A stretch of DNA of 64,000 bases from an uncultured Clostridia bacterium (GTDB lineage: Bacteria > Bacillota > Clostridia > TANB77 > CAG-508): assembly GCA_963559065.1 (NCBI GenBank), contig CAUWIY010000005.1, positions 17,679 to 81,678 of the forward strand, read 5' to 3'. The notes beneath the pieces were generated by a model that saw only the letters and a program-made list of their open reading frames with translations, was not told where the DNA came from and made no database searches. The position numbers were made by a program, and so were the translations under genes. Shown in pieces: positions 31,602 through 60,206 of this stretch. How positions within the stretch are numbered: position 1 is the first letter of the stretch; each line of letters opens with the position of its first letter.

Positions 31602-31632
31602 CTTGTCAATAGGGACGCCCCTTTTTGACCAC
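31602..31632 (-). repeat. GC-cored palindromic repeat, copy A
   Basis: The reverse complement is GTGGTCAAAAAGGGGCGTCCCTATTGACAAG. The family consensus is GGTTGTCAAAAAGGGGCGTCCCTATTGACAAC. Confidence 0.9.
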
Positions 31633-31760
31633 AAATTATATGCCTCAATATAAAATTCAATTGTAAATATTAATAAAAGCGACATGATTAAGAATCTTTG
31701 ACCTTTTAGATTATTTACATGTCGTGTCTTCGTTCATCGAACTAACATAATAGATAAAAA

Positions 31761-31793
31761 GTTGTCAAAAAGGGACGTCCCTCTTGACAACTT
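31761..31793 (+). repeat. GC-cored palindromic repeat, copy B (variant core AGGGACGTCCCT)
   Basis: AGTTGTCAAAAAGGGACGTCCCTCTTGACAACT, abutting the stop of the 507-aa gene. Confidence 0.9.
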
Positions 31794-31795
31794 TG

Positions 31796-33319
31796 TTATC
31801 TATCGCTATATTCTCCATCTTCTTCTCCGACTGTTTTTGCTTCTTGTTCATCTATAACATCACCAAATTTTGTGCATTTTTCTACTCCAAATTTTTCTGC
31901 ATATTCATTATATAATTTTACAGAGTCTATATGTCTATCAATTATCTGGTTTAGTAGTTTGTGATATTCTTCAAAAACAAATTGTCCTTCACTTTCTTTA
32001 GTTTCTTCTCTTATATCGGATTTCATTACAAATTCTACAAATTCTTGAATACTTGGATTTTGCTTATAAGTATCATAATCAAAATAATCTTTTCCTTTTT
32101 TCAATTTTACATTTCTTAATAAAGCTTCCTTTAGATGTAAATATTGAATTATTTCATCGTAATTAGACTCTTCTTTTTCTTTGCCATCTTTCTTTTTTTC
32201 TCTCTCTTCTATAATTGAATATAATTTTTCAAATCCATTATCTATAAGTGAATAACAAAATTGTGTATTTAAATCTCTTCCTTGTTTTGCAAAATCAAAT
32301 ATTGTTTTCATTTTATTTATATATTCATCTTTTTTGGTATCATCTTCAGCCATTCCTGTATCTAATTGTCTATCTATAATATCAGCCTGTTCTTCTTCTA
32401 AAATTCTTTTAACATCAATTGCTATTCCTTTTTCCTTTATTCTAAAGTATTGTTCCATATCAGACTCTTCTTGAGTTTCCCCAATTATCATACTAGGGTC
32501 AATTTCTTTATTTATATTTTTATTTTTCAAATATTTCTTTAGTTTTAGTAACTCATCCCATGACAATTTGTGTTTATTTGAAATATTTTCTCCTTTTTCA
32601 TATTGCCTCATTAAATTTTTTATAATAAAGTCTCTTTTTGTGTATAAAATCACACCTATACTTTCTTCACTTCTTAATTCAGCAATATTTTCTCCCACAT
32701 CAAACATTTTCTTTTTTTCTTCTGGTAGTTCTCTCATTGCCTCATTTCTCATCCATTTTTTTCTATAGTTTTCTTTAACTTTTTGTGCTAATAATTTATT
32801 ACTTTTTTCAACACTTGAAATTACATCTGGACGAAGTTTATGTGATTTTATCCCCTGTTGTTCTTCTTCCAAAGTATATGTTTTTTCTAAAGAACATTCT
32901 CCTTTTCTACTTCTTGTGATTATTTCTAGTCCTTCTTCTGTGTACATAAATGGTATTTCTGATCTAATACATACTTGTGCTAATTTATCACAATATTCAC
33001 AAATGTTAAATCCTTTTGCATTCTCTTTTAATTGAGCCAAAAGATAATCTCTTATTGTTTTAGCAAAAGCCATTGGTTGAATATTTTTTTGTGTTAAATC
33101 TAGTTTTCCTAATGCAACTTCATATTTTTCTTCACTTTTTCCATCATTTAAACTATATTTTAATATAAATAATCCCTCTTTTTGTGAAGTTTCTTTATCT
33201 GGAAATATATTAAAAATAATATCTGTGTCTGGATTAGCTATAACACTTTTGTCATATTTTACTATTGAATCTTTTTTTATATTTTTTTGTATCTCTCCCA
33301 TTTTCTTCTCCTTTGTCAC
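31796..33319 (-). CDS. Hypothetical protein (507 aa, Glu/Lys-rich, no recognised domain)
   Basis: Long uninterrupted ORF with a GTG start. I recognise no motif. Confidence 0.5.
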   Translation of the reverse strand: MTKEKKMGEIQKNIKKDSIVKYDKSVIANPDTDIIFNIFPDKETSQKEGLFILKYSLNDGKSEEKYEVALGKLDLTQKNIQPMAFAKTIRDYLLAQLKENAKGFNICEYCDKLAQVCIRSEIPFMYTEEGLEIITRSRKGECSLEKTYTLEEEQQGIKSHKLRPDVISSVEKSNKLLAQKVKENYRKKWMRNEAMRELPEEKKKMFDVGENIAELRSEESIGVILYTKRDFIIKNLMRQYEKGENISNKHKLSWDELLKLKKYLKNKNINKEIDPSMIIGETQEESDMEQYFRIKEKGIAIDVKRILEEEQADIIDRQLDTGMAEDDTKKDEYINKMKTIFDFAKQGRDLNTQFCYSLIDNGFEKLYSIIEEREKKKDGKEKEESNYDEIIQYLHLKEALLRNVKLKKGKDYFDYDTYKQNPSIQEFVEFVMKSDIREETKESEGQFVFEEYHKLLNQIIDRHIDSVKLYNEYAEKFGVEKCTKFGDVIDEQEAKTVGEEDGEYSDR

Positions 33320-33572
33320 TTATCTTCCTAAACTATACTATAATTTAAATACTTTTTCAATATTAAATCACTTTAATTTTCGTTTTTTACATCACATATT
33401 ATACTATAATGCTATAATATATTTGTTCATTGCATCAGTGAGCATTACTTAAGATAAGCAATAACAAATTTTAAAACTCATTCCATTTAAGCATATATTA
33501 TGTATTATAACAGGCAATATAAAAAATCGAAACTTAAATAAATAACAAAAATTTATTATCTTTTATAAAAAT

Positions 33573-57753: not shown

Positions 57754-57883
57754 TGAGATAAGTACAATAGTCAAATTTGTTTAATAATTTGTGCTATTTT
57801 ACTTGTCTCTTTTTTTTTGATATGTTATTATAATACTTGATAAATATGTCAATAATATAAATGATAATAAGGAGGTAAATTTT

Positions 57884-60121
57884 ATGAACTTTAAACAATG
57901 GACTGATTTTAAAAATGGTGATTGGCAACATGAAATAAATGTTAGAGATTTTATTCAAAGGAACTATACTCCATATGAAGGAAATTCTAGTTTTCTTGCT
58001 TCATCAACAGAAAAAACAAAAAAATTATGGGATGAAGTTTTAGAACTTTATAAAAAAGAAAAAGAATCTAAAGGTGGAGTTTTAGATATAGATACAAAAA
58101 CTGTATCTACTGTATCAGCACATAATGCTGGATACATTGATAAAGATTTAGAGAAAATAGTTGGATTACAAACAGATGCTCCTTTAAAAAGAGCTATAAT
58201 GCCTTTTGGAGGAATTCGTATTGTTGAAAAATCTTGCGAAGCTTATGATAGAGAAGTTGACCCTGAAGTTGGGGAAATTTTCCATAAAATTAGAAAAACA
58301 CATAATGATGGTGTATTTAGTGTATATACTCCTGATATTAGAGCTGCTAGAAGTAGTCATTTAATAACTGGATTACCTGACGGTTATGGTCGTGGAAGAA
58401 TTATTGGTGATTATAGAAGAGTTGCACTATATGGTGTTAATGCTTTAATTGAAGAGAAAAAACGAGAATTAGAAGTTTTAGATACAGATGAATTCACACA
58501 AGAAATTATTCGTGATAGAGAAGAAATTAAAGAACAAATAGATAGTTTAGAACAATTAAAAATAATGGCTTCAAAATATGGTTTTGATATTTCTGAACCT
58601 GCCCAAAATGCAAAAGAAGCTGTTCAATGGTTATATTTTGGTTATTTAGGAGCAATAAAAGACCAAAATGGTGCCGCAATGAGTATTGGTAGAACATCTA
58701 CATTTTTAGATATATATTTTGAAAGAGACTTAAAAAATGGTACTTTAACAGAAGAAGAAGCTCAAGAACTAATGGATCATTTTGTTATGAAATTAAGACT
58801 AGTTCGTTTCTTAAGAACTCCTGAATATAACGAGTTATTCAGTGGAGACCCTGTTTGGGTAACAGAAAGTATTGGTGGAATGGGAATTGACGGTAGAACA
58901 CTAGTTACTAAAAACTCTTTTAGAATTTTACACACACTAGAAACTTTAGGCCCTGCTCCAGAACCAAACTTAACAGTTTTATGGTCTACTAGACTTCCAG
59001 AAGGATTTAAAAGATATACAACAGATTTATCTATTAAAACATCTTCAATTCAATATGAAAATGATGACTTAATGAGAATCACTTTAGGAGATGATTATGG
59101 AATTGCTTGTTGTGTTTCTCCTATGAAAATTGGAAAACAAATGCAGTTTTTTGGTGCTAGAGCAAACTTAGCCAAAACTTTATTATATGCAATAAATGGT
59201 GGTAGAGATGAAATATCTGGAAAACAAATTACTCCAAAATATGCTCCTATTACTTCTGAATATTTAGATTATAATGAAGTTATGGAAAAATTTGACCAAA
59301 TGATGGAATATGTTGCAACAATTTATATAAAAGCTTTGAATGCAATTCATTATATGCACGACAAATATTCTTATGAAGCAATTGAAATGGCATTACATGA
59401 TAAAGATATTTTAAGAACAATGGCTTGTGGTATTGCTGGTTTATCAGTTGTAGCAGATTCTTTATCTGCAATAAAATATGCAAAAGTTAAAGTAATTAGA
59501 GATGAAACAGGATTAGCTACTGATTATCAAATAGAAGGAGATTACCCAAAATTCGGTAATGATGATGACAAAGTAGATACTATTGCTGTTGATATTGTAA
59601 AAAGATTTATACGCAAATTACAAAAACATCAAACTTATAGAAATTCAAAACAAACATTATCAATTTTAACAATTACATCAAATGTAGTTTACGGTAAAAA
59701 CACAGGAAACACACCTGATGGAAGAAGAGCAGGTACACCATTCGGGCCAGGAGCAAATCCTCTACATGGAAGAGATACAAATGGAGCATTAGCAGTTATG
59801 AATTCAATTGCAAAATTGCCATTTGAAGATGCAGAAGATGGAATTTCTTATACATTCTCAATAACACCTGGAACACTAGGTAAATCAGAAGATGAAAGAG
59901 TTACAAATTTAGTAAATATGTTAGATGGATATTTTGCACAAACAGGACATCACATAAATGTAAATGTATTTGACAGAAGTCTACTTGTAGATGCAATGGA
60001 ACATCCTGAAAAATACCCACAATTAACAATACGTGTATCTGGATATGCAGTAAACTTTACAAAACTAACAAGAGAACAACAATTAGATGTAATTAATAGA
60101 ACAATACACGAAAGAATTTAA
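57884..60121 (+). CDS. pflB: Formate C-acetyltransferase (pyruvate formate-lyase)
   Basis: 745-aa ORF with the catalytic Cys pair (GIACCVSP) and the C-terminal glycyl-radical motif TIRVSGYAV. Confidence 0.95.
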
Positions 60122-60123
60122 AA

Positions 60124-60156
60124 AGTTGTCAAAAGGGACGCCCCTTTTTGACAACC
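60124..60156 (-). repeat. GC-cored palindromic repeat, copy F
   Basis: AGTTGTCAAAAGGGACGCCCCTTTTTGACAACC starts 3 nt after the pflB stop. Confidence 0.9.
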
Positions 60157-60173
60157 TAATATTATTTTATATA

Positions 60174-60206
60174 AGTTGTCAAAAAGGGGCGTCCCTTTTG
60201 ACAACT
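60174..60206 (+). repeat. GC-cored palindromic repeat, copy G
   Basis: AGTTGTCAAAAAGGGGCGTCCCTTTTGACAACT is followed by TTTTTT and then the pflA RBS. Confidence 0.9.

Follow-up and report, generated by a model that had tools for sequence, protein, structure and literature searches.

A short palindromic sequence recurs seven times in a 64,000-nucleotide (nt) stretch of contig CAUWIY010000005.1 from an uncultured Clostridia bacterium (GenBank assembly GCA_963559065.1, positions 17,679 through 81,678 of the forward strand; herein the window). We consider it highly probable that these repeats are repetitive extragenic palindromic (REP)-type elements, many of them arranged as head-to-head doublets, and that their cognate enzyme is a class-2 Y1 HUH transposase whose gene is single-copy and fixed in the chromosome, namely a REP-associated tyrosine transposase (RAYT) that is TIRYT-like and carries a putative C-terminal helix-turn-helix (HTH). 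In all likelihood, the repeats themselves are non-autonomous hairpins on which this transposase acts.

The repeat family in the window and in related gut Clostridia

An earlier description of the window, made from its letters alone (herein the sequence-only reading), had proposed a palindromic family of seven copies. A 32-nt consensus with up to three mismatches allowed gives exactly seven matches in the window, each with one to three mismatches (Table 1), where 100 dinucleotide shuffles of the window give a chance expectation of 0; a looser structural pattern recovers the same seven copies and no others. The copies first reported are therefore real, with two small corrections: the unit is 32 rather than 31 nt long, and three of the seven starts shift by 1 nt. 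All seven are intergenic, as had been stated, in a sequence with a G+C content of ∼26%; the accompanying claim that they lie within or at the ends of co-directional operons does not hold for the pair at 42866 through 42946, which lies between the convergent porB and ferredoxin genes. Six of the seven copies are paired, and all three pairs have the (-)(+), or head-to-head, order that had been described. The gaps between units (32-mer to 32-mer) are 126, 7, and 17 nt, the two shorter ones as originally given and the longest corrected from 128.

The wide pair (31602/31760) has 40-nt arms that are 83% complementary, around a 126-nt spacer without significant structure. The pair at 42866 through 42946 has 40-nt arms of 100% complementarity, with the stem preceded by an A-run and followed by a T-run on each side, and takes up the entire 83-bp spacer between the two convergent genes. 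The pair at 60120 through 60210 has 39-nt arms (97% complementary) around a 13-nt loop, and seven consecutive T come after it. Rfam at gathering thresholds matches no family at any copy; only a 6S RNA and one tRNA were matched in the window. Searches of the window for other repeat types, using GGGGWSAS and GGRNCGKYC-type cores, yield only the seven copies, and the sole GGGGWSAS match (28116) is no more than chance would give. At pflA, the Logan contigs L069 and L070, which come from two independent short-read assemblies, both stop inside the second repeat copy, at window position 60181; the repeats therefore fragment short-read assemblies.

Each unit folds into a hairpin comprising an outer TTGTCAA/TTGACAA stem of 7 to 11 bp, a small internal loop, an inner AGGG/CCCT stem, and a GCGT loop; the outer stem reaches 11 bp via AAAG.../...CTTT flanks. 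Folding thus recovers the outer stem, the GGG/CCC inner stem, and the GCGT loop that the sequence-only reading had drawn. As single-stranded DNA the unit has a free energy of -12.9 kcal/mol, compared with -2.5 kcal/mol for shuffles (z = -8), and the long doublets reach -48 and -44 kcal/mol as DNA. A per-position tally of 125 unique copies defines 28 near-invariant positions, bulge and loop bases included, as the core TTGTCAAAAAGGGGCGTCCCTWTTGACA. The core is flanked by a weaker, mutually complementary AAAAG/ACTTTT extension, which brings the total to as much as 39 nt. The window family has GGGGCGTC/GGGACGCC.

A search of related genomes, which had been suggested as a check on the family, was made by scanning the pattern TTGTCAANNNGGGNCGNCCCNNTTGAC against one genome per species (185,579 species). 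The scan returned 67 stretches, all in ∼13 metagenome-assembled genomes (MAGs) labelled uncultured Clostridium sp. or Clostridia bacterium, among them UMGS1423, UMGS1516, and several Hadza MAGs (gut Clostridia). Across the por operon the window is only 79 to 85% identical in DNA sequence to two of these carriers, and it therefore comes from another species in their lineage; its contig is ENA ERZ926630 k127_34928. The pattern is absent from all 2.9 million viral contigs scanned, indicating that the repeat is not phage-borne. Full-text literature searches found no paper containing the core sequence and no paper mentioning UMGS1516 or UMGS1423.

A relaxed match over the fetched loci and the window defines a dispersed set of 129 copies at 81 sites, to which the following counts refer. 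No copy lies inside an open reading frame (ORF). Co-directional genes flank 53 of the sites and convergent genes 17, while only 5 lie between divergent genes, and copies are typically 1 to 25 nt from the adjacent stop or start codon. Doublets are predominantly head-to-head (35 in “-+” order, 5 in “+-” order). Single copies make up 36 of the 81 sites and show no orientation bias relative to the direction of transcription (12 opposite, 11 same). The four best-sampled genomes hold at least 34, 24, 21, and 19 copies, respectively, these counts being lower bounds based on the fetched loci alone.

A repeat-flanked Y1 transposase in sister genomes

A RAYT- or IS200-like transposase had also been proposed as something to look for, and a repeat-flanked RAYT-type Y1 gene is present in sister genomes. 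At two loci, L006 and L008 (Table 1), the gene product is 245 amino acids (aa) long and the repeats are inverted around the gene, with their heads towards it. One or two copies lie upstream and two or three downstream of the gene in L006, L008, and eight contigs of an 86% identical variant (P0003). In all eight of the independent metagenome contigs shown for this variant, an inverted copy lies 102 nt before the gene and two more copies lie after it, and these flanking copies are identical to the window core. In all, the loci with a repeat-flanked gene are L006, L008, L071 through L078, L082, L085, L087, L090, L092, and L096.

This REPtron-like arrangement bears on the earlier suggestion of a REP/bacterial interspersed mosaic element (BIME)- or miniature inverted-repeat transposable element (MITE)-type repeat: a RAYT-type Y1 HUH gene flanked by the repeats supports the REP side and argues against a classical DDE-type MITE. 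Read as MITEs, the pairs would be deletion derivatives of a DDE-type insertion sequence, with the 32-mers as its terminal inverted repeats. The inverted pairs around spacers of 7 to 126 nt fit this description, as does the breaking of contigs L069 and L070 within a copy. However, each unit is itself palindromic and often stands alone, the window copies show no target-site duplication, the spacers are mutually unrelated, the only repeat-flanked transposase is a Y1 HUH enzyme, and no viral contig has the repeat. We give the MITE explanation almost no credence.

The 245-aa protein has a Pfam Y1_Tnp match of 51.5 bits (1e-13; cutoff 23). NCBIfam model NF047646, which describes REP-associated tyrosine transposases, scores 74.6 bits, compared with 19.7 bits for the IS200 model. 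The database contains 2,260 homologues at E < 1e-5, and the motifs H60-V-H62 and Y120-I-H-N-N-P are invariant in homologues down to 35% identity. In a pairwise alignment to Escherichia coli TnpA-REP (Protein Data Bank [PDB]: 4ER8), H60/H62 fall on the HUH motif and Y120 falls on Tyr115 (the number being counted along the alignment), which we take to be the catalytic residue. A family profile searched against the PDB has 4ER8 as its sole match (E = 9e-4). Structure modelling, run on database homologues, gave an AlphaFold2 model with a predicted local distance difference test (pLDDT) score of 80.7, for which the top Foldseek match is 4er8_A (E = 3e-7), followed by the IS608, ISDra2, and IS200 transposases. 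Residues ∼176 through 245 form a conserved C-terminal domain modelled as well-ordered helices; its Pfam matches are weak (HTH_11 in 8/18 members, Sigma70_r4 in 8/18, HTH_23 in 4/18, and Bac_DnaA_C in 1/18). Both the core and the fold are of RAYT type, and Y---NP is the signature of all class-2 (TnpA-REP-like) Y1 proteins (Quentin et al., PMC6006769).

The gene is vertically inherited at a fixed locus. Homologues of 86, 82, 66, 58, 57, 53, and 50% identity are all located between dnaB and tilS, the 66% variant with one additional gene inserted in the interval. The L006 gene also adjoins tilS, giving eight tilS-adjacent lineages, seven of them with the order dnaB-RAYT-tilS; two variants of 48 to 49% identity are located elsewhere. 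At this locus we also observed that in five lineages (L071, at 3290 through 3340, L082, L085, L090, and L096) the repeat copy closest to tilS, immediately past the RAYT gene, lies in frame within the 5′ end of the called tilS ORF. The in-frame copy follows a conserved ribosome-binding site and ATG, e.g., MEKKSCQKGASLLTEVLETIKKY. L094 lacks a copy at this place, and its TilS begins ∼15 codons further on. The repeat may thus be translated as an N-terminal extension of TilS, or it may mask the true start.

The flanking repeats diverge along with the protein while retaining the stem, which is TGTCAA/TTGACA in the type form. The L082 flanking repeat reads ...AGGGCGTCCCAATTGAC; L085 and L096 have the outer stem GGTCAA/TTGACC; L087 has a GTCAG/CTGAC stem with a GGAACGTCCC core; and L092 keeps the outer stem around the core TCTCCGTCCCC. 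At 50% protein identity (L094), only a degenerate repeat remnant is left. The stem changes are compensatory, most variants still fold, and CGTCC is the sole constant. These changes were read directly from the flanking repeats, as MAFFT put variants with shorter bulges out of register, and they are supported by folding. Compensatory stems together with a constant CGTCC are what would be seen if the protein recognised both a hairpin and a short sequence motif.

Modelled by analogy on E. coli TnpA-REP and IS608 TnpA, a possible mechanism would begin with single-stranded DNA, e.g., the lagging-strand template, in which a unit could fold into its TTGTCAA/TTGACAA hairpin. The transposase would recognise this hairpin and the invariant apical CGTCC motif, and would then cleave and rejoin DNA such that copies are spread, deleted, and homogenised in intergenic spacers. 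By the same analogy, catalysis on these hairpins and ongoing mobility of the repeats would be expected.

Site turnover and rival explanations

Occupancy of orthologous spacers differs among species, which is indirect evidence that the repeat may be mobile, and some of these spacers carry another repeat type. In this sample, the majority of sites occur in a single genome. Five genomes have repeats at iscU|mnmA, and the window and two sister species (L014 and L037) share occupation of porC|porD. The sequence-only reading had associated the repeats with the oxygen-sensitive por and pfl modules; of the sites at these modules, only porC|porD is shared with other species, and the other 80-odd sites lie beside unrelated housekeeping genes (such as glyQS, mnmA, iscU, and sufC). 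The link to por and pfl is incidental.

At two spacers the contents differ from species to species. The sufC|sufB spacer holds a type-1 doublet in L017 and a doublet of a different repeat, AACCA...GGGGACGT...TGGTT, in L009. The porB-ferredoxin spacer, filled by the perfect doublet in the window, holds in L014 and L037 a second Y1_Tnp paralogue that is 35% identical to the first. This second paralogue is bracketed by its own palindromic type, GGGATT..GGGACGTTCC..AATCCC, one L037 copy of which contains GGGGACAC. The paralogue loci are L037 4455 through 5770 and L014 7783 through 8000. Between porB and the paralogue in L037 (4520 through 4780) lie tandem repeats of ∼20 nt, first TTTTTTATATCCTTGTTCA-like and then TATCTATGTCC-like. 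The sufC|sufB doublet of L009 (7693 through 7787) is of a third related repeat type, AACCA(A/T)TGGGGACGT...TGGTT.

The strict conservation of the sequence itself, beyond its structure, could also be accounted for if TTGTCAA-N13/14-TTGACAA were the double-stranded operator of a dimeric HTH regulator with a regulon that includes por, pfl, and suf. The regulator might be the RAYT-like protein itself, whose conserved C-terminal domain is HTH-like both in its weak Pfam matches and in its modelled helices, and the sites do adjoin central-metabolism and Fe-S genes. Most sites, however, lie past stop codons or between convergent genes rather than in promoter regions, and copies 1 to 25 nt from adjacent start codons leave no space for a promoter. 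The number of sites at orthologous spacers varies by species, with other repeat types in some, and the compensatory stem changes point to recognition of a hairpin. An operator role is in our judgement very improbable. A promoter role was considered and rejected: every unit ends in TTGACA, but the one -35/-10-like match that starts in a copy (31784) points antisense into an ORF, and promoter-like matches are not enriched (72 found, 81 expected).

The repeats might alternatively be primarily host-functional RNA or DNA hairpins, acting as bidirectional intrinsic terminators or as mRNA 3′-end stabilisers or processing sites, that are selected and immobile, their link to a transposase being historical. 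Consistent with such a role, sites lie at gene 3′ ends and inside operons and hardly ever between divergent genes. Folded as RNA, the doublets reach -71 and -63 kcal/mol, and A-runs and T-runs bracket their stems, including the seven T after the pflB|pflA doublet. A terminator scan flags only one copy (31794 to 31758). The porC|porD copy is retained in three species, its versions differing at 1 to 2 of 27 core positions (93 to 96% core identity) where the flanking coding DNA is 79 to 82% identical. On the other hand, ordinary terminators do not share a 28-nt sequence with a near-invariant loop and bulge over ∼13 species. The porC|porD copy is single and has no T-run, and a terminator there would divide the subunits of an enzyme. 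Single copies are unbiased with respect to transcription, and the gene of the cognate transposase is itself repeat-flanked and co-varies with the repeats. As a replacement for the REP explanation, this account is unlikely; it is compatible with REP elements as an added (exapted) role. Transcribed hairpins probably do also serve as 3′-end or processing structures, chiefly the doublets with flanking U-runs after pflB and porB. We regard this role as secondary because ordinary terminators share no invariant loops across species and the porC|porD copy lacks a T-run.

The transposase and the repeats might alternatively form a domesticated rather than a selfish partnership. The RAYT-like protein, long fixed beside tilS (in most lineages between it and dnaB), would then maintain a small set of identical hairpins placed precisely in the gaps from a stop codon to the next ribosome-binding site, where they would punctuate operons through termination, RNase processing, or translational control, and the putative C-terminal HTH of the protein would read the double-stranded palindrome. 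On this proposal, which is an unlikely one, a copy is even retained in frame at the 5′ end of the tilS ORF in five lineages.

Several observations weigh against REP elements with a cognate RAYT. No RAYT gene was found in the 64-kb window by tblastn, look-ups of RAYT variants returned only samples other than that of the window, and the genomes that carry the gene are only 79 to 85% DNA-identical to the window species; the window’s own genome presumably carries it as well. The NF047646 score falls just below the curated cutoff of 80. Copy number is low, in the tens per genome (∼20 to 35 or more per MAG), as opposed to hundreds in E. coli and Pseudomonas. Unlike classical REPs (PMC3733652), the units have no unpaired 5′ GTAG or CGTC foot, and an invariant CGTC(C) is instead located in the apical loop. 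Neither within-species insertion polymorphism nor a target-site signature was seen. The doublet spacers, of 9 to 53 nt, are mutually unrelated in sequence, unlike those of REP doublets forming hairpins (REPINs), and partner arms differ by a mean of 5.2 mismatches, compared with 6.0 for non-partner copies (p = 0.075). As this difference is not significant and the spacers are unrelated, there is little support for a REPIN that replicates as a single unit.

Genomic setting and relation to known systems

The genes neighbouring the window copies were identified by NCBIfam scans (Table 1), which also confirmed a RicT gene among them. The 507-aa ORF beside the first repeat pair, 31796 through 33319(-), has no significant Pfam or NCBIfam match. 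The small ferredoxin encoded opposite porB is plausibly the electron acceptor of the adjoining oxidoreductase.

Table 1. Coordinates of the repeat copies, neighbouring genes, and 6S RNA gene in the window and of the transposase genes in two sister-genome loci
Feature	Position	Strand	Remarks
Repeat copy	31602..31633	-	3 mismatches; left half of wide head-to-head pair; downstream region of 507-aa ORF, upstream of prmC
Repeat copy	31760..31791	+	3 mismatches; right half of wide pair; 4 nt from stop of ORF 31796-33319(-)
Single repeat copy	40374..40405	+	occupies gap from porC stop codon (40373-40375) to porD ribosome-binding site (Shine-Dalgarno)
REPIN-like head-to-head pair	42866..42946	-, +	copies 42871-42902(-) and 42910-42941(+); 81-nt perfect palindrome between porB (stop 42863) and ferredoxin gene
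REPIN-like head-to-head pair	60120..60210	-, +	copies 60125-60156(-) and 60174-60205(+); between pflB (stop 60121) and pflA (start 60224)
Transposase gene, L006	6363-7100	-	order: three “-” copies, gene, two “+” copies
Transposase gene, L008	2151-2888	-	order: two “-” copies, gene, one “+” copy
prmC	30665-31567	-	NCBIfam
SMC gene	35910-39467	-	large ORF; not a second or single-chain pyruvate:ferredoxin oxidoreductase
porC, porD, porA, porB	39797-42863		four-subunit pyruvate:ferredoxin oxidoreductase; NCBIfam
Ferredoxin gene	42947-43123	-	58 aa, 2x[4Fe-4S]; previously unlisted; convergent with porB
pflB	57884-60121		NCBIfam
pflA	60224-60955		NCBIfam
6S RNA gene	35592-35785	+	Rfam RF00013, 85 bits; beyond smc 3′ end, opposite strand

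REPtrons, REPINs, TIRtrons, and Group 1 RAYTs in Clostridia have been described (PMC3116915, PMC3733652, PMC5581495, PMC6006769), and most of the defining features of REP/REPIN-RAYT systems (PMC3116915, PMC3337134) are present here. As with the REP, BIME, and REPIN elements and RAYTs of E. coli and Pseudomonas, the repeat is a short extragenic imperfect palindrome with tens or more dispersed copies. As in a REPtron, these copies lie between co-directional or convergent genes, mostly as head-to-head doublets, and a single-copy Y1 HUH gene with inverted flanking repeats is inherited vertically at a fixed locus. Genomes with REP systems likewise typically have several transposase paralogues, each paired with a repeat type of its own (PMC6006769), and E. 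coli TnpA-REP (4ER8) is the best structural match. The protein differs from the 165-aa E. coli enzyme in its HTH-like C-terminal extension of ∼100 aa, and the host, unlike E. coli and Pseudomonas, is a low-GC bacterium of the class Clostridia.

In its putative C-terminal HTH and G-rich core the system is closest, judged by published description, to the TIRYT/TIRtron class and to subclass 2.1. TIRtrons and TIRYTs (Di Nocera et al. 2013, PMC3733652) are for the most part equivalent to TnpA-Y1 subclass 2.1 (Quentin et al. 2018, PMC6006769); their HTH extension, which follows the Y1 core, is Bac_DnaA_C-, HTH_23-, or HTH_28-like. Features shared with them are a RAYT-like protein with a putative C-terminal HTH; longer inverted flanking repeats, some self-complementary; moderately abundant families occurring as singles, dimers, and clusters; and a G-rich core related to GGGGWSAS, which the sister variants GGGGACGT (L009, L087) and GGGGACAC (L037) approach or match. 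The window core GGGGCGTCCC, by contrast, does not fit GGGGWSAS. In a large survey, subclass 2.1 was described as having no REP-like structures beside its genes (Quentin et al., PMC6006769), whereas clear flanking hairpin repeats are found here. The main text of Di Nocera et al. (PMC3733652) does not name Firmicutes or Clostridia (0 occurrences). Group 1 RAYTs do occur in Clostridia, with flanking 16-mers found ∼12 times per replicon (Bertels et al., PMC5581495), which matches the copy numbers here.

The IS200/IS605 elements IS608 and ISDra2 have the same HUH/Y1 fold, and recognition of IS200/IS605 ends as hairpins on single-stranded DNA would be a further likeness. They differ from the present system in that the gene here is single-copy and syntenic, has the class-2 Y---NP motif, and scores low with the IS200 model; the repeats, moreover, are dispersed independently rather than confined to element ends.

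The family is a known kind of bacterial repeat with some variant features, found here in uncultured gut Clostridia. To our knowledge, work on REP/REPIN-RAYT systems has been confined almost wholly to Proteobacteria, and the present system is a clean low-copy REP-RAYT example in an uncultured, AT-rich lineage of gut Clostridia with a probably small genome. Its useful traits are a transposase fixed beside tilS (mostly as dnaB-tilS), co-divergence of repeat and protein that includes compensatory stems, and apparent membership of the C-terminal-HTH type; a 28-nt hairpin and a 245-aa protein make a tractable pair for studying DNA recognition by Y1 enzymes of this branch. Because short-read assemblies break at the pflA repeats, the repeats matter for MAG contiguity, and they may shape the expression of por and pfl.

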